The notes beneath the pieces were generated by a model. That model saw only the letters and a list, made by a program, of their open reading frames with translations. It was not told where the DNA came from and did not search any database. From the IMG/VR virus record IMGVR_UViG_2547132272_000019: DNA of 5,102 nucleotides; one strand, given 5' to 3'. Positions 817 to 5,102 of this stretch are shown piece after piece. Position numbers and translations under genes: made by a program. The first letter of the stretch is position 1, and each line of letters opens with the position of its first letter. This DNA is from a virus. Taxonomy: Duplodnaviria > Heunggongvirae > Uroviricota > Caudoviricetes.

Positions 817-1363
817 CGGGGAAGCCATTCTGCTGCGCAACATCACCGTCAGCGCCACCATGCAACTACCGGACAAAGATATGTCCGGACAGTCAACCAG
901 CACCACGAGCGCCCAGCAGGGAAGCAAGGCTAAAGAGCTGCGCGTGTCGGGGGTTATTGATTTTAACGATGAAGCTATTCTGACCCGTATTTTTCAGCTT
1001 GCGGAGGCAACAGAAAGCAATGGCGCGAAAAAAACATATCGCATTGCTAACGCTACCGCGAAGGCAATCAATATGCGACAGGGGGTATTTTCTGGTGGCA
1101 TTGATGCCACGGAACAACAGGGAAAAATGCACTGGCAGGTCACCTTTACTCTCAGGGAAAAATTAAGCGTGCCAGAGAAAGCGTCTGCACGTAGCGGTTC
1201 GCAGAAAACCATCGCCAGACAGCAGACCCAGAACGGTAGCGAACAGGCACCAGACAAAGGCATGAATACGCAAAGTTCGTTCTGGAAAAAAATCAATGAT
1301 GCCGTTGGCTCTGGTCTGGATGCTGTTGGTATCGGGAGCGTGAAAGAGGAAGGGAAAACATGA
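788..1363 (+). CDS. hypothetical protein, 191 aa; possibly part of a phage-tail-like module
   Basis: Strong Shine-Dalgarno AAGGGAGG at about 773-780, 7 nt before ATG 788. The TGA stop at 1361-1363 overlaps the ATG 1360 of the next gene (ATGA). The 29-nt overlap with the previous gene is consistent with an operon. Confidence 0.65.
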   Translation: MTQMIVLALDGEAILLRNITVSATMQLPDKDMSGQSTSTTSAQQGSKAKELRVSGVIDFNDEAILTRIFQLAEATESNGAKKTYRIANATAKAINMRQGVFSGGIDATEQQGKMHWQVTFTLREKLSVPEKASARSGSQKTIARQQTQNGSEQAPDKGMNTQSSFWKKINDAVGSGLDAVGIGSVKEEGKT

Positions 1364-3057
1364 AATTGATACAACGCTGCATGATTAATGGCGAACGGGT
1401 GGAAATTGCCGATATAAACCTTGTTCTTACCCTGAATGCTGCCGGTCGTGGCTTCATTTCTGTTAATAATCTGTCACCAGAAAAAAGCCTTGCCGGCGCA
1501 ATGGTACAAATTGATCTCGGCCGTGACGGTGAAGTCTGGCGCTATTTCTCCGGCTACGTTGAACGCGACCAACCCGCCGAAAATGGTTCGCGCCGCCTTT
1601 TTATCCGTGAAGCAGCTGCTGTGCTGGATTTTGATTTCCCCTGCTCCATGCAACACCCGACGTTGCGGGAGGTGTTAGATAATCTGGGACGACAAAGCGG
1701 CATCGTTTTTATCACCCCGGACGCGGATTATGTCAACACACCAACCCCCTACATCACCCACAGCGGCAGCGGAACGCAGCTACTCAGCCAGCTGGGGCGC
1801 GCATTCAGTATCAGCGATTACGTCTGGCACCCAATGCCGGACGGTTCTGTATTTGTGGGAAGCGCCGCTGATTCACGATTTGCCAGTATTACGATGCCGG
1901 ATATTCCGCAACAGTACGCTCTCGGGCAAAGCGGCGGAAACAGCATCGACATCATGTTCATGGAAACTGTGCGACCGGGCGTGAATCTTCCCGCCGGGCG
2001 TATTACCCGCGTAGCCCTCAACAACGAGAAAATGACTCTGACGTGGGAGCGCCTTACCGTCACGGGCAGCCCTGTCTCCAAATCACCATTACGCAGACAG
2101 ATGGAAACACAGTTCCCGGAACTGGCCAGCGGCACACTACACACCAGGCTGGCGCGCGTCATTGCACCAACGGAATCCGCCACCCTGGGCGATGTGGCCG
2201 ACAGCTTCCGTCCACGCTACGCCGTGGACGTGCAACTGCTCGATGAGGACGGCAACGATAAAAGCGATACGCCTGTTTACCCGGCAGTCCCACTCCCCGT
2301 CCCGATGGCTGGTAGCGAGGCGGGATGTTTTGCCTACCCGCCGGCAGGCACCATCGTGGAAATATCTAACATTGAAGGGCGCCCGGATAAACCTGTTATC
2401 AGGCAAATCTTACCCGCTGGCCATAACCTGCCTGATGTAAAGCCCGGCGAACAACTGCAGCAACAGCGCGCAGAAGTGTTTCAGCGCGTCACGACTGACG
2501 GAAGCTGGCACAGAGAAACAGACCAGCAAATCAGGGAGCAGTCAGCCACCCGCACAATCAACAGTGATGCAGAAGAGCGCACCACAACAACCAGAACAAC
2601 CACAGTACGGGCAAACGACATAACCAGTGTTCTGGGAACCAGCAAGCTGGCGGCAGGACAAATAGAGCACCTTACTACCGGCCATTACGCGATCGCAGCC
2701 AGCGAGCATATCCAGATGGTAGCGCAGGATTTGCTGACTAAACTCAAAGGAGCAATATCCACGATTGAGCAGGACCTGACTGAAAACGTGGGAGGCCGCA
2801 GAATATGCCGGGCGGACGGCGGTCTGAAGTTTACAGCCCCGACAGTATTTATTGGTCGCGGTGGCTCACGGGAAAAATCCGAACTTAATCTGCTGACGTT
2901 GTTGATTGATATTCTGGATCTGATTCAATTGCTGGCCACGCACACAGCAAACCACACCCACAGCAACACTGGCGCACCAATGAACAGCGGCGAACTTGCC
3001 GCAGATGCCCTGCAGGCTACGAGCCTGCGCGAAAAATACGGCGACCTTATCGCCTGA
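1360..3057 (+). CDS. 565-aa protein, putative phage tail / baseplate-hub (P2 gpD 'late control D'-like) protein; family assignment tentative
   Basis: Long ORF with SD GAGGAAGGG upstream and an ATGA overlap with the preceding gene. The N-terminal segment INGERVEIADINLVLTLNAAGRGF matches, from memory, the I-x-GE-x-V-x-I-...-L-x-L-...-RGF pattern of gpD-type tail proteins. Contains a TTTTRTTTV low-complexity stretch and a His-rich C-terminus (HTANHTHSNTG). Followed by an intrinsic terminator. Confidence 0.5.
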   Translation: MKLIQRCMINGERVEIADINLVLTLNAAGRGFISVNNLSPEKSLAGAMVQIDLGRDGEVWRYFSGYVERDQPAENGSRRLFIREAAAVLDFDFPCSMQHPTLREVLDNLGRQSGIVFITPDADYVNTPTPYITHSGSGTQLLSQLGRAFSISDYVWHPMPDGSVFVGSAADSRFASITMPDIPQQYALGQSGGNSIDIMFMETVRPGVNLPAGRITRVALNNEKMTLTWERLTVTGSPVSKSPLRRQMETQFPELASGTLHTRLARVIAPTESATLGDVADSFRPRYAVDVQLLDEDGNDKSDTPVYPAVPLPVPMAGSEAGCFAYPPAGTIVEISNIEGRPDKPVIRQILPAGHNLPDVKPGEQLQQQRAEVFQRVTTDGSWHRETDQQIREQSATRTINSDAEERTTTTRTTTVRANDITSVLGTSKLAAGQIEHLTTGHYAIAASEHIQMVAQDLLTKLKGAISTIEQDLTENVGGRRICRADGGLKFTAPTVFIGRGGSREKSELNLLTLLIDILDLIQLLATHTANHTHSNTGAPMNSGELAADALQATSLREKYGDLIA

Positions 3058-3095
3058 TCACCTGGACATAAAAGCCACATAAACGCCCATCACAC

Positions 3096-3123
3096 AACGC
3101 ACGGCTTCGGCCGTGCGTTTTCA
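3096..3123 (+). terminator. Rho-independent terminator of the + strand operon
   Basis: Perfect 10-bp inverted repeat aacgcacggc (3096-3105) / gccgtgcgtt (3110-3119) with a TTCG tetraloop, followed by a T-run; lies 39 nt after the stop at 3057. Confidence 0.7.
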
Positions 3124-3188
3124 TATCTGCCACCTGATTAATGCGTTCTGCGCGCCATTCTGGCGCTGTATGCGCACACCGCGTAAAC

Positions 3189-3218
3189 GGTGTGACGTAA
3201 AGCGTGAGGTGACGTAAA
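3189..3218. repeat. tandem direct repeat GGTG(T)GACGTAAA, two copies about 19 bp apart; possible protein-binding sites
   Basis: ggtgtgacgtaaa at 3189-3201 and ggtgacgtaaa at 3208-3218; a further CGTAAA at 3182-3187 sits in the loop of a 7-bp hairpin (cacaccg/cggtgtg, 3175-3194). Confidence 0.4.
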
Positions 3219-3324
3219 CCGCGCTACCCCCTCCAACCCGCGGGTTTTGTGTCGAAACACTTTTTCAGTTTTCTGCCGTGCAAAAATGACCGCCAGCCCG
3301 CGCAGCGACTGAGGGAAAAGCGAA

Positions 3325-3583
3325 GATCTGAAATTTCACGCTTTGAAATTTTTTGCAGTTTTCAGCGAGTTTTTTACGATCTCATAAATGGCAGGAGCAA
3401 TGAAACCGCATGATATTAAAAGAGTTTTCATACTTTACGCGAGACAAAAAAACGATCACGAAAGGATCGCATCAAACAACCATCAAACAGCGAAGTCAGA
3501 CGCGGCGCGGCCTGCGTAAAATTGAGAGTCAAAATTAAACTGAAAAAAGGATCAATACCGCGCCTCGATCGCGCATGACGATC
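3325..3583. repeat. GATC-dense, AT-rich block (7 Dam sites in about 260 bp) with short direct repeats
   Basis: GATC at 3325, 3378, 3454, 3465, 3550, 3567 and 3580, versus about 8 in the remaining ~4.8 kb. Includes catcaaaca x2 (3469-3491), an imperfect repeat ttttt(g)cagttttc (3262-3282 vs 3350-3370), and an A7 run plus 5-bp hairpin at 3446-3469. Confidence 0.5.
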
Positions 3584-3600
3584 TATGCAGCAACAGGACG

Positions 3601-3623
3601 AAAAAAACCGGCGCGAACGCCGG
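3601..3623 (-). terminator. Rho-independent terminator on the - strand
   Basis: GC-rich 6-bp stem ccggcg (3608-3613) / cgccgg (3618-3623) with a CGAA loop. On the - strand it is followed by U7 (the + strand A-run at 3601-3607); on the + strand there is no U-tail. Confidence 0.55.
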
Positions 3624-3664
3624 CGGAAGCATGTATCAAATGCGTGACTGAATAATGTCTGCGG
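3601..3664 (-). ncRNA. candidate ~60-nt small RNA, divergent from the hok promoter; function unknown
   Basis: A - strand promoter-like pair lies about 7 nt upstream of the predicted start, and the strong - strand terminator at 3601-3623 lies about 60 nt downstream. No ORF with an RBS in between. Confidence 0.35.
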
Positions 3665-3670
3665 TCGGGA

Positions 3671-3700
3671 ATTTTACATCAGAAGGCTGATAAGTCTCAA
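3671..3700 (-). promoter_or_regulatory. sigma70-like promoter for the candidate sRNA
   Basis: Read on the - strand: -35 TTGAGA (+ strand 3695-3700), 18-bp spacer, -10 TAAAAT (+ strand 3671-3676). Back-to-back with the hok promoter. Confidence 0.35.
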
Positions 3701-3704
3701 CGGA

Positions 3705-3734
3705 TTGAAACAAGGGAAAAAACCAGGCTAGAAT
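3705..3734 (+). promoter_or_regulatory. putative hok mRNA promoter
   Basis: -35 TTGAAA (3705-3710), 18-bp spacer, -10 TAGAAT (3729-3734). Predicted start near 3741 coincides with the 5' element that pairs with the mRNA 3' end. Confidence 0.4.
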
Positions 3735-3784
3735 TCGCGCGGGTGCCTTTCGGCTGATGGCTGGAGGGAATACCCGAAGGCCGA

Positions 3785-3970
3785 ATGTGGAAAGGCCCCG
3801 AGTCAACTTTAACGTTAACCCGAGGCCCTAGCCATACAACCTTCGCAAGTCGTAGGTTAGCGCCTCCCCGAAAAAGGAGCAAGCGCTATGTCGCAAAAAT
3901 CGCTTACGGCCATTACGTTCTGCGTAACGGCAATCCTCATCATCTGGATGCTACACGGTTCACTGTGTGA
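3785..3970 (+). CDS. mok-like overlapping reading frame (61 codons) for translational coupling to hok
   Basis: ATG 3785 preceded by GAAGG (3776-3780). The frame overlaps the hok start and ends inside hok in a different frame, matching hok/mok architecture. No independent homology recognised. Confidence 0.35.
   Translation: MWKGPESTLTLTRGPSHTTFASRRLAPPRKRSKRYVAKIAYGHYVLRNGNPHHLDATRFTV
3786..3847 (-). ncRNA. Sok-like cis-antisense antitoxin RNA (about 60 nt); boundaries approximate
   Basis: Expected by hok/sok architecture. A - strand promoter candidate overlaps the hok SD. The extended hairpin at 3794-3827 is fully paired only on the - strand transcript (G-U wobbles there are C/A mismatches on the + strand) and is followed by UUU on the - strand. 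Confidence 0.3.
3854..3882 (-). promoter_or_regulatory. candidate Sok promoter
   Basis: Read on the - strand: -35 TTGCTC (+ strand 3877-3882), 17-bp spacer, -10 TAACCT (+ strand 3854-3859). It overlaps the hok SD region. An alternative pair is -35 TTGTAT (3834-3839) with -10 TAACGT (3812-3817). Confidence 0.25.
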
Positions 3971-4028
3971 GATACGGATGAGCTTCTGGGGAGCGGAGTT
4001 TGCGGCGTTCTTACAATGTAGACAGTAA
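3888..4028 (+). CDS. hok: Hok/Gef-family type I toxin, 46 aa (MSQKSLTAITFCVTAILIIWMLHGSLCEIRMSFWGAEFAAFLQCRQ); specific paralog not determined
   Basis: AAGGAG at 3874-3879, 8 nt before ATG 3888. N-terminal hydrophobic transmembrane stretch, then the Hok hallmark SLCEIR and a C-terminal E-x-AAF-L motif (compare Hok ...[22 protein letters not shown]). The ORF is below the size cut-off of the supplied track. Confidence 0.75.
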   Translation: MSQKSLTAITFCVTAILIIWMLHGSLCEIRMSFWGAEFAAFLQCRQ

Positions 4029-4114
4029 GAAAACCGCGACGGGGAAGGCAACTTCCCCGTCAATCGGTTGCCAGGGTAAGGCCGATAAGGCACCCTATAC
4101 ACATCCCAAAGCAG

Positions 4115-4151
4115 AAACCCGCAGCGTAAAACTGCGGGTTTTCTTTTTCTT
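4115..4151. terminator. bidirectional intrinsic terminator shared by the hok mRNA (+) and the convergent yidD-like operon (-)
   Basis: 10-bp stem aaacccgcag (4115-4124) / ctgcgggttt (4132-4141) with loop CGTAAAA. On the + strand it is followed by TCTTTTTCTT; on the - strand by CUGCUUUG. It lies 7 nt from the yidD-like stop at 4158. Confidence 0.65.
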
Positions 4152-4157
4152 ACGCGC

Positions 4158-4391
4158 TCACGATTTGCGACATTTACAAATATGAGGAGGGTAATCTGCA
4201 CCACCATTAGGCGGACGACAGCGATAAATCCGGCTCAATCCTAATCGCCAGCCTTCAAAAAAGCCATAGCGCCTTATTGACACCAAAGTGTAAGCCGAAC
4301 AGCTTGGAGTATAACGACATCTGTTACGAATGCTGGCTGGCGCATGAGCACGATAATAAAGAATCAGACGTATACTAAGCCATTTAAGCAT
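4158..4391 (-). CDS. YidD-family protein (PF01809, putative membrane protein insertion efficiency factor paralog), 77 aa
   Basis: Translation contains the YidD signature ...RCRYTPSCSAY...GW.L...RI.RC.P...GG.D.P and aligns well with E. coli YidD as recalled from memory. Its start overlaps the stop of the upstream 80-aa gene by 8 nt. Confidence 0.7.
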   Translation of the reverse strand: MLKWLSIRLILYYRAHAPASIRNRCRYTPSCSAYTLVSIRRYGFFEGWRLGLSRIYRCRPPNGGADYPPHICKCRKS

Positions 4392-4626
4392 CTGATACTT
4401 TTTTTCTAAAAGTAATCACATAGTATTGAAAAAACTGCGCCTTTCCGCCACCGAAACACCCCGGCTGCTCTTCTATACCAATCGTATCAACCCGTTGAAA
4501 TTCCCAGCCATCCGCCGCCTGTTCATTAACAACATTCTGAAGATATGCAGCAGCTACCCCCGCTTTATTATCTTTTGCCTTTACAGAAATATTCGGCGGC
4601 ACCTGAATCATTTTATAGGTATACAT
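4384..4626 (-). CDS. small conserved hypothetical protein, 80 aa (possibly DUF4177-like)
   Basis: Strong SD AAGGAG 8 nt upstream of ATG 4626. Translationally coupled to the yidD-like gene. Compact globular-looking sequence with a GWE motif; the family call is from memory only. Confidence 0.55.
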   Translation of the reverse strand: MYTYKMIQVPPNISVKAKDNKAGVAAAYLQNVVNEQAADGWEFQRVDTIGIEEQPGCFGGGKAQFFQYYVITFRKKVSDA

Positions 4627-4772
4627 TACCTGAGCTCCTTTAATAAAAAAGACAGTAATAAACGCCCTAAAACAGCCCGCACCTCACGATGCGAGCATTA
4701 GATCACTATGGCAATATGTGGACAACGCGAAAAATAATCCATTATTTTTCATTGCATTACAGCAGTTTTCGT

Positions 4773-4788
4773 GCCACCCGAAGGTGGC
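4773..4788. other. GC-rich stem-loop in the ytfP / downstream-gene intergenic region
   Basis: gccacc (4773-4778) / ggtggc (4783-4788) with a CGAA loop, just after the ytfP stop. No U-tail on the - strand, so it is not a canonical ytfP terminator; it may be an RNA-stability or attenuator element. Confidence 0.3.
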
Positions 4789-4797
4789 GTGTTTATA

Positions 4798-5102
4798 TTA
4801 TGACTTATCCCTGTCTAACCAGTCGCCGCTTTCAATCAGCGTTAATCCATCGACGGGTCGTTGATAAACGTACATCCATGCACTCCCGTACGGCGTCTGA
4901 ATCAACTGGCGCGCGTATTCACCGCCCCTGGTGCGCAAGGCATCAAGTTCGGCCAGCGTGGCGTTGTCAATACGATAAACTTCACCGTGTACCGTTCCGT
5001 TTCCCGGAACTGCGCCTGGATAGTGGCCCAGGCTATACAACTGGTAGTTATCGATACTGAAATCGCCCAGCAACTGGGCATTGGTCATCCAGTGGCTGGG
5101 GG
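4798..5102 (-). CDS. ytfP: gamma-glutamylcyclotransferase-family (AIG2/GGCT-like) protein YtfP, 3' portion; start lies beyond the window end
   Basis: Translation ...SHWMTNAQLLGDFSIDNYQLYSLGHYPGAVPGNGTVHGEVYRIDNATLAELDALRTRGGEYARQLIQTPYGSAWMYVYQRPVDGLTLIESGDWLDRDKS* matches E. coli YtfP as recalled from memory. The frame stays open to the window edge upstream of the track's Met at 5088. Confidence 0.8.
   Translation of the reverse strand, partial: PSHWMTNAQLLGDFSIDNYQLYSLGHYPGAVPGNGTVHGEVYRIDNATLAELDALRTRGGEYARQLIQTPYGSAWMYVYQRPVDGLTLIESGDWLDRDKS

Follow-up and report, generated by a model that had tools for sequence, protein, structure and literature searches.

A probably intact hok/sok-type toxin-antitoxin cassette on a P88/P2-like prophage next to ytfP

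A DNA stretch of 5,102 nt (IMG/VR virus record IMGVR_UViG_2547132272_000019), called the window in the following, was analyzed. It represents the right arm of a prophage of the P88/P2-like kind (Peduoviridae), which resides in the chromosome of an Escherichia. An earlier inspection of its letters without database searches, called the sequence-only reading here, had proposed an apparently intact hok/mok/sok-type type I toxin-antitoxin (TA) locus at positions 3705-4151. The sequence features that it had named were all present, and their coordinates were exact or at most two bases off.

For a comparative analysis, relatives of the cassette were taken from genomes, phages, plasmids and IMG/VR, resulting in 79 unique sequences, of which 74 were aligned. 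Counts for the mok frame, the hok open reading frame (ORF) and the promoter pattern of the antisense RNA Sok refer to the 79 unique relatives, and counts for base pairing refer to the 74 aligned ones. Conservation of pairing is given as the percentage of paired cells, counted for the named base pairs in the 74-sequence alignment, and variability is given as entropy in bits. The locus contains the following features:

3705-3734, plus strand: hok promoter, sigma-70-like, with the -35 box TTGAAA (3705-3710), an 18-nt spacer and the -10 box TAGAAT (3729-3734)
3741-4148, plus strand: predicted full-length hok mRNA of about 408 nt, bounded by the promoter and the terminator
3741-3755, plus strand: tac-like 5' element GGGUGCCUUUCGGCU, near-invariant in the relatives (0.13 bits)
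3785-3970, plus strand: mok-like ORF of 61 codons that overlaps hok, present here and probably fortuitous
3790-3799, plus strand: ucb-like box GAAAGGCCCC, an alternative partner of the 5' end (0.04 bits)
3828-3846, plus strand: predicted target of the Sok 5' tail, a hypervariable recognition region, the entropy of which (0.72 bits) is the maximum within the module
3846-3790, minus strand: predicted Sok-like RNA of about 57 nt with predicted ends, comprising a 5' tail (3846 to 3828), a hairpin (3827 to 3794) and a U-run
3860-3886, plus strand: hairpin that sequesters the Shine-Dalgarno (SD) sequence, with CUCC 3864-3867 paired to GGAG 3876-3879 and GCGC 3860-3863 paired to GCGC 3883-3886
3882-3854, minus strand: predicted Sok promoter, with the -35 box TTGCTC (3882 to 3877), a 17-nt spacer and the -10 box TAACCT (3859 to 3854)
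3888-4028, plus strand: hok toxin gene, encoding the 46-aa peptide MSQKSLTAITFCVTAILIIWMLHGSLCEIRMSFWGAEFAAFLQCRQ
4038-4061, plus strand: 3' stem-loop GACGGGGAAG-GCAA-CUUCCCCGUC, with the stem 4038-4047/4052-4061
4080-4095, plus strand: fbi-like 3' element GGCCGAUAAGGCACCC, the partner of 3741-3755
4114-4148, plus strand: intrinsic terminator, with which the cassette ends on its 3' side, a hairpin of 11 pairs (4114-4142) followed by a U-run

Judged from its sequence, the ORF 3888-4028 is a toxin gene of the Hok/Gef family. The sequence-only reading had based this on a hydrophobic N-terminal helix, SLCEIR and E-x-AAF, and profile searches bore it out. The hydrophobic N-terminal stretch is LTAITFCVTAILIIWML, and SLCEIR and E-F-AAF are both present in the peptide. 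The profile PF01848 (HOK_GEF) matched with 30.0 bits, above its curated gathering score of 22 (E 4.1e-7), and the match spanned residues 7-44 of the peptide and positions 5-42 of the 42 profile positions. PHROG 251, labeled 'MokW-like host killing', matched over the full length (E 4.2e-22). In the search against NCBIfam, the peptide did not reach equivalog-level identity to any of HokA-E: HokA was on top with 32.9 bits versus a cut-off of 89, and the Hok subfamily scored 21.3 bits versus a cut-off of 73. The identity to Hok of plasmid R1 was 39% over 31 residues of the conserved core. Seven residues have been reported to be conserved in more than 80% of 1,264 Hok peptides (M1, C16, T18, L30, C31, E32 and E41), and all seven have equivalents with the same spacing in the 46-aa peptide (M1, C12, T14, L26, C27, E28 and E37). 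The expected SD sequence was also found: GGAG is located at 3876-3879, 8 nt upstream of the ATG.

The hok ORF was intact in all 79 unique relatives and encoded 45-47 aa. The variability at the three codon positions was 0.18, 0.10 and 0.33 bits, respectively, and the order 3 > 1 > 2 is as expected for a protein under selection. As the sequence-only reading had remarked, the gene is invisible in the ORF track, because it is shorter than the 60-aa cut-off for ORFs. However, this is the only reason, and the NCBI pipeline does annotate the gene. The RefSeq annotation is present in E. coli genomes, with 'Hok/Gef family protein' entries such as WP_000078916.1. The exact peptide is found at NCBI as 'MULTISPECIES: Hok/Gef family protein [Enterobacteriaceae]' on 251 contigs, and 354 blocks in the index of encoding contigs list it.

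The window locus is therefore of a known kind, the peptide being already annotated and its cluster already catalogued. The high-abundance Hok 'cluster 72' was described by Escalera-Maurer et al. (bioRxiv 10.1101/2025.08.07.668861). Its representative 72_1621 differs from the window peptide in one residue, K45 instead of R45. Both 72_1621 and the Stx-phage type 72_1589 were cloned from this cluster, 42 of the 45 tested peptides were toxic, and none of the three peptides named as non-toxic belongs to cluster 72 (bioRxiv 10.1101/2025.08.07.668861).

Upstream of hok, a consensus scan of the plus-strand promoter revealed 10 of 12 matching positions and predicted a transcription start at G3741. In relatives with unrelated upstream DNA, a -10-like TAGATT or TAAATT was kept 6 nt before an invariant GGGTGCC. 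The predicted transcript 3741-4148 folds with -173.5 kcal/mol, compared to -130 +/- 6 kcal/mol for shuffled sequences (z -7.2). At its 3' end, the strong terminator that had been noticed before was confirmed as the hairpin 4114-4142 plus U-run. An Rfam match to Thr_leader at 4082-4148 (E 0.16) was dismissed as just this terminator hairpin, and a match to RsmY at 706-847 (E 0.39) was dismissed as a chance-level score.

The 5'/3' fold-back, which had been placed at 3741-3753 with 4082-4095, proved to be real and longer: 3741-3755 and 4080-4095 form a helix of 15 bp, from which only U4086 bulges out and which is present in the minimum free energy (MFE) fold and in the centroid fold. These positions were paired in 95.2% of the cells, compared to 43-56% when the partners were slid by 1-3 columns. 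The variation on the fbi side mostly kept the pairing, i.e., G-C and G-U occurred at ratios of 40:32 and 64:9, and U-A and U-G at a ratio of 57:16. In the copy of S. diarizonae, a compensatory change from CGGC/GCCG to CGAU/AUCG was found. A perfect 9-bp complement is by itself not rare in about 450 nt (about 0.4 expected as a rough estimate), and the fold-back goes beyond chance because it is located at the predicted 5' end and is kept in 74 relatives.

The ucb-like box offers the same 5' end a second partner. It is complementary to 3741-3751 with U3744 bulged, and the pairing was kept in 98.4% of the cells. In silico shortening of the RNA changed the partner of the 5' end: in an RNA ending at 4064 it paired with 3790-3799 (MFE), and in an RNA ending at 4075 it paired with 3759-3775. 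In these predicted folds, the switch of partners would yield the same two structures as in the R1 model, namely the tac/ucb stem and the metastable hairpin. The 3' stem-loop has compensatory changes in two pairs (GC:45/AU:29 and AU:52/CG:15/GC:5), both partners of which were altered in 29 and 21 sequences, respectively, out of the 74. By analogy to the R1 model (PMC9841398), the mRNA in its processed, active form probably ends with this stem-loop. The hairpin that sequesters the hok SD was present in the MFE and centroid folds, and 95.4% of its cells were paired, with exchanges between G-C and G-U.

An antisense RNA had been expected by the sequence-only reading, and a candidate for it was indeed visible: the minus-strand promoter 3882 to 3854 could drive a Sok-like RNA of about 57 nt. 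Its position is homologous to that of the antisense promoters of R1 and sokW, and mutation has demonstrated that the homologous -10 box drives sokW, the GGTTAG being altered in a promoter-less mutant (Takada et al. 2021, PMC8621323). No hexamer of the cassette is more conserved than the -10 box (0.017 bits). The strict pattern TTGCTC-17-TAACCT was found in 61 of the 79 relatives and TTGACTC-17-TAACCT in 6 more; 12 relatives fell outside the strict pattern, and aligned rows with GGAGGCAAG or GGAGACAAG would have TTGCCT or TTGTCT as -35 box. The predicted Sok hairpin folds better on the minus strand (-29.8 kcal/mol, z -4.6) than on the plus strand (-14.8 kcal/mol). Its pairs were kept in 94.5% of the cells on the minus strand versus 81.8% on the plus strand. 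The difference arises from three positions at which a G-U pair of the minus strand corresponds to a C-A mismatch of the plus strand.

The region to which the 5' tail of Sok would bind, 3828-3846, is about twice as variable as the third codon positions of hok (0.72 versus 0.33 bits), whereas the flanking -10 box and ucb box are near-invariant. The wider region between the hairpins, about 3828-3853, occurs in 25 variants among the 74 relatives. This variability fits a fast-evolving recognition region. A query with 3300-4400, which contains the cassette, matched 1,541 of 5,426 complete E. coli genomes, at up to five places per genome. The combination of a variable target with several matches per genome suggests a diversification against cross-talk between copies.

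The surroundings of the locus revealed that the label 'chromosomal hok locus' was mistaken. The ORFs 103-816, 788-1363 and 1360-3057 have matches in phage families, the last one encoding a baseplate protein, and homology to phage P88 runs past hok as far as 4772. It is followed by ytfP, and the stretch in which ytfP is located, 4640-5102, had a match in all complete E. coli genomes, with 95-99% identity in almost all of them. The block that is common to other elements is 3717-4148. Homology to P2-like loci and to loci at the serS site stops at 4148, and in some elements the shared block already stops at about 4095-4098, directly after the 3' pairing element. The cassette also occurs in P2-like prophages and phage-plasmids, where it follows ogr, in Stx phages, where it follows lom, in P88 and further Xuanwuvirus phages, and on plasmids of the types IncI1, IncC and IncF. 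A shared block across phages and plasmids indicates a mobile, self-contained cassette, here on a prophage next to ytfP, and not a resident chromosomal hok paralogue. A search of species-representative genomes with an alignment of cluster members retrieved six loci only, which belonged to Salmonella, to E. albertii and to three records that bear the names of non-enteric taxa, namely Planococcaceae, Vagococcus and Xanthomonas.

Some observations on individual copies were made. Near-identical cassettes were found under the unrelated taxa Planococcaceae (a metagenome-assembled genome, locus L012), Vagococcus sp. (L013) and Xanthomonas pisi (L016). Two of these three copies are on short contigs of 857 and 4,211 bases, and the copies are most likely contaminating Escherichia or phage DNA. 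In five P2-like loci (L001-L004 and L007), the 38-bp hok terminator (window 4111-4148) is repeated about 1.2 kb downstream, at about 11465-11502. The two terminator copies flank a gene for a 208-aa protein and a toxin gene of the YafO family. This arrangement looks like that of a second cassette, either inserted at the terminator or duplicated together with it. In Stx phages (locus L011, which is Shigella phage 75/02 Stx, at positions 1872-2273, and the corresponding stretch of L023), the homology ends directly past fbi, about where an annotated gene for a 133-aa protein begins; these copies, which do not have the terminator of the window, may be read through.

Taken together, the features are best explained by an intact hok/sok-type type I TA cassette (about 3705-4148), an autonomous 'moron' of the P88/P2-like prophage that is inserted next to ytfP, and we assign a probability of roughly 0.85 to this interpretation. 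The ORF, the fold-back pairing, the terminator and the predicted antisense promoter are all in place, in agreement with the remark of the sequence-only reading that the locus looks complete, and the cassette is intact and probably functional.

A mechanism can be proposed in which every element is visible in the sequence and the functions are assigned by homology to hok/sok of plasmid R1. The plus-strand promoter would yield the mRNA of about 408 nt, the 5' end of which would pair with 4080-4095. This would result in a closed, inert mRNA, in which the hok SD is additionally held in its local hairpin. Slow trimming of the 3' end back to the stem-loop 4038-4061 would remove the 3' partner. The 5' end would then re-pair with 3790-3799, and thereby the hairpin 3794-3827 would open and the Sok-complementary region would be exposed. 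The unstable antisense RNA would bind there via its variable 5' tail, and the duplex would be destroyed. In R1 (PMC9841398) and in hokW-sokW (PMC8621323) it is RNase III that destroys the Sok duplex, and in R1 the antitoxin is known to be unstable and the toxin mRNA to be stable. If the supply of Sok stops, upon loss of the element or upon prophage induction, the processed mRNA would be translated into the 46-aa Hok, which would enter the inner membrane and cause its collapse. In the folds and alignments analyzed here, all RNA elements accessible to in silico analysis would follow the R1 scheme, except for the mok frame.

Several results weigh against this interpretation. The Rfam model RF01794 (sok/hok leader) matched 3741-3901 with 36.7 bits (E 9e-6), which is under its gathering score of 59. 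The 5' side of the fold-back is invariant, and its support consists of one-sided changes and a single compensatory cell; therefore, tac/fbi represents conserved complementarity and not true covariation. For the same reason a shuffle control for tac/fbi was uninformative, as the 5' side never varies. RNAalifold did not recover the fold-back helix from the 74-sequence alignment, which may be due to the flanking parts of this alignment and to a block of gaps in it. The predicted Sok promoter matches the consensus at only 3+3 of 12 positions, too few to appear in the output of the consensus scan. Last, the predicted accessibility of the hok SD was nearly equal in the full-length RNA (0.21) and in the truncated RNA (0.18), and thus the folds do not account for a switch-on of translation without mok.

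The same machinery might have a role other than addiction or post-segregational killing, i.e., it might aid lysis and phage release or exclude superinfecting phages. Such a role is somewhat unlikely, but it would suit the prophage location adjoining late tail and baseplate genes, and hok genes have been reported to be about four-fold enriched in prophages. A precedent is hokW-sokW of prophage Sp5, which speeds lysis: its deletion halves the amount of Sp5 phage released, and sokW RNA vanishes after the addition of mitomycin C (PMC8621323). However, HokW is a different Hok of 51 aa (MKQQKAM...) and not of the 46-aa type, and the same cassette is present on conjugative plasmids, where stabilization is the usual role. 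The sequence holds nothing that would tell these roles apart, namely the stabilization of prophages or plasmids, an aid to lysis as by hokW-sokW, and the exclusion of phages.

The mok-like frame 3785-3970, which the sequence-only reading had counted among the typical features of hok mRNAs, exists in the window, but it is not conserved. In a canonical three-gene locus of the R1 type, the 61-codon ORF would be translated, the ribosomes would open the SD hairpin, and Sok would block the translation of mok. The ORF of the window has properties that match this scheme. It runs without a stop codon from ATG 3785 through the SD and the start codon of hok, in the same relative frame as mok of R1, and ATG 3785 and an upstream GAAGG are kept in most relatives. 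In addition, the predictions for both RNA forms have the hok SD in a paired state, so that unwinding would be needed, and in R1 the synthesis of Hok requires translation of mok up to the hok SD (PMC9841398). Yet the ORF from ATG 3785 reaches hok in only 13 of the 79 relatives. It stops before the hok ATG in 62, after 1-29 codons, and the ATG is missing in the remaining 4. Even in a relative that is 97.8% identical to the window, a TGA 19 nt ahead of hok ends the frame. The open part of the mok frame lacks any ATG, GTG, TTG, CTG, ATT, ATC or ATA in 44 of the 79 relatives, and in 45 the nearest in-frame stop is located downstream of the GAGG that matches the mok SD of R1. At the position homologous to the R1 mok start, the window has no start codon and none was conserved among the 79 relatives, near-cognate codons included, and no AUG follows the GAGG.

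The location of ATG 3785 also argues against a canonical mok. The position that corresponds to the mok AUG of R1 is 41 nt further downstream. In addition, ATG 3785 is outside the predicted Sok-complementary region 3790-3846, and thus Sok would not cover it. The conservation of this ATG is accounted for by RNA pairing, because it abuts the ucb box, which pairs with the 5' end. The canonical three-gene arrangement is thus unlikely for this locus, and the mok-like frame of the window is probably fortuitous. As mok is needed in R1 and cluster 72 does not have a conserved mok, there would have to be another route to open the SD, or else a low level of direct hok translation. Unlike in R1, translation of hok is here probably independent of an overlapping mok frame.

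It is therefore tempting, but at somewhat less than even odds, to regard the hok loci of cluster 72 as mok-less in general. The mok start of R1 would have been lost, while tac, ucb, fbi, the Sok target including its GAGG, and the SD hairpin would have been kept. Sok would then act only via mRNA decay or via a direct structural effect, ribosomes might use the freed GAGG region as a standby site, and the hypervariable target would insulate copies that coexist in a genome from one another. If true, this mok-less variant of the R1 architecture would be a natural test case for the activation and repression of Hok without a leader peptide.

Several chromosomal hok copies of K-12 are thought to be silent. 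That the cassette of the window is likewise a silent relic, with an intact ORF and a toxin that is never made in meaningful amounts, would be in line with the missing conserved mok, which is essential in R1, and with the mostly paired hok SD, but it is highly unlikely, because the ORF, both -10 boxes, tac, ucb and the SD hairpin are kept in 74-79 diverged copies on unrelated phages and plasmids, the codon positions vary as in a protein under selection, peptides of the same cluster were reported to be toxic (bioRxiv 10.1101/2025.08.07.668861), and the cassette moves as a unit, the boundaries of which are the promoter and fbi or the terminator.

The regions on both sides of the cassette contained further candidate features. 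Between the baseplate-like gene and the hok promoter, about 650 nt (3058-3704) contain no ORF of more than 54 aa. On the minus strand of this region, a promoter-like TTGAGA-18-TAAAAT (3700 to 3671) and a terminator-like hairpin with U7 (3624 to 3607) would frame an RNA of about 65 nt (3664 to 3598) that is divergent from hok. The fold of this candidate RNA was unremarkable apart from the terminator (z -1.5), and it had no Rfam match. Between hok and ytfP, two ORFs are located on the minus strand. The one at 4158-4391 encodes 77 aa, is YidD-like and has the annotation yidD in a related prophage of E. coli, and the one at 4384-4626 encodes 80 aa (phrog_12383). Both were assigned to the phage because the P88 homology extends to 4772. 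It is curious that a phage-borne gene for the membrane-insertion factor YidD adjoins a membrane toxin gene.

As a gene find, the locus has little weight, because the peptide is named in RefSeq, its cluster has been catalogued and reported to be toxic, and the enrichment in prophages is known. The catalogue deliberately left mok, Sok and the mRNA structure outside its scope (bioRxiv 10.1101/2025.08.07.668861), and these are described here for cluster 72. A widespread cassette thereby becomes visible as a full unit with promoter, predicted RNA switch, predicted antisense gene and terminator, which hops among P2-like phages, P88-like phages, Stx phages and plasmids.

A comparison with known systems places the cassette as follows. 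From the other members of cluster 72, which corresponds to PHROG 251 and to the RefSeq Hok/Gef entries, the copy in the window does not differ substantively, and its location is a P88-like prophage at ytfP. With hok/sok/mok of R1 it shares a small Hok with a conserved core and a leader that is similar enough to match RF01794. Further common features are the three alternative pairings predicted for the 5' end (with fbi, with ucb and in a local hairpin), a protective 3' stem-loop and an SD hairpin (PMC9841398), and the -10 box of the antisense RNA, which is predicted here, is at the homologous spot. In contrast to R1, the peptide has 46 instead of 52 aa and lacks the longer C-terminal tail, there is neither an AUG after the GAGG nor a conserved overlapping mok frame, and the cassette is carried by a prophage instead of a plasmid. 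The 'MokW-like' labels in phage annotations had suggested an identity with HokW of Sakai prophage 5 (Sp5), which was rejected; 'MokW-like' is a family name and does not denote identity. The hokW-sokW system, which has been experimentally characterized as a type I TA system (PMC8621323), is likewise prophage-borne, and the mRNA start GGGUGC... and the sok -10 motif AGGTTAG are common to both. HokW is HokD-like, however, and the 46-aa gene represents a separate locus type, the homologue of which sits after lom in Stx phages. The hokA-E genes of K-12 belong to the same Pfam family, and HokA is the top NCBIfam match; in contrast to them, the gene in the window scores only 32.9 against the cut-off of 89, is not a paralogue of the core genome and is uninterrupted by insertion sequences.

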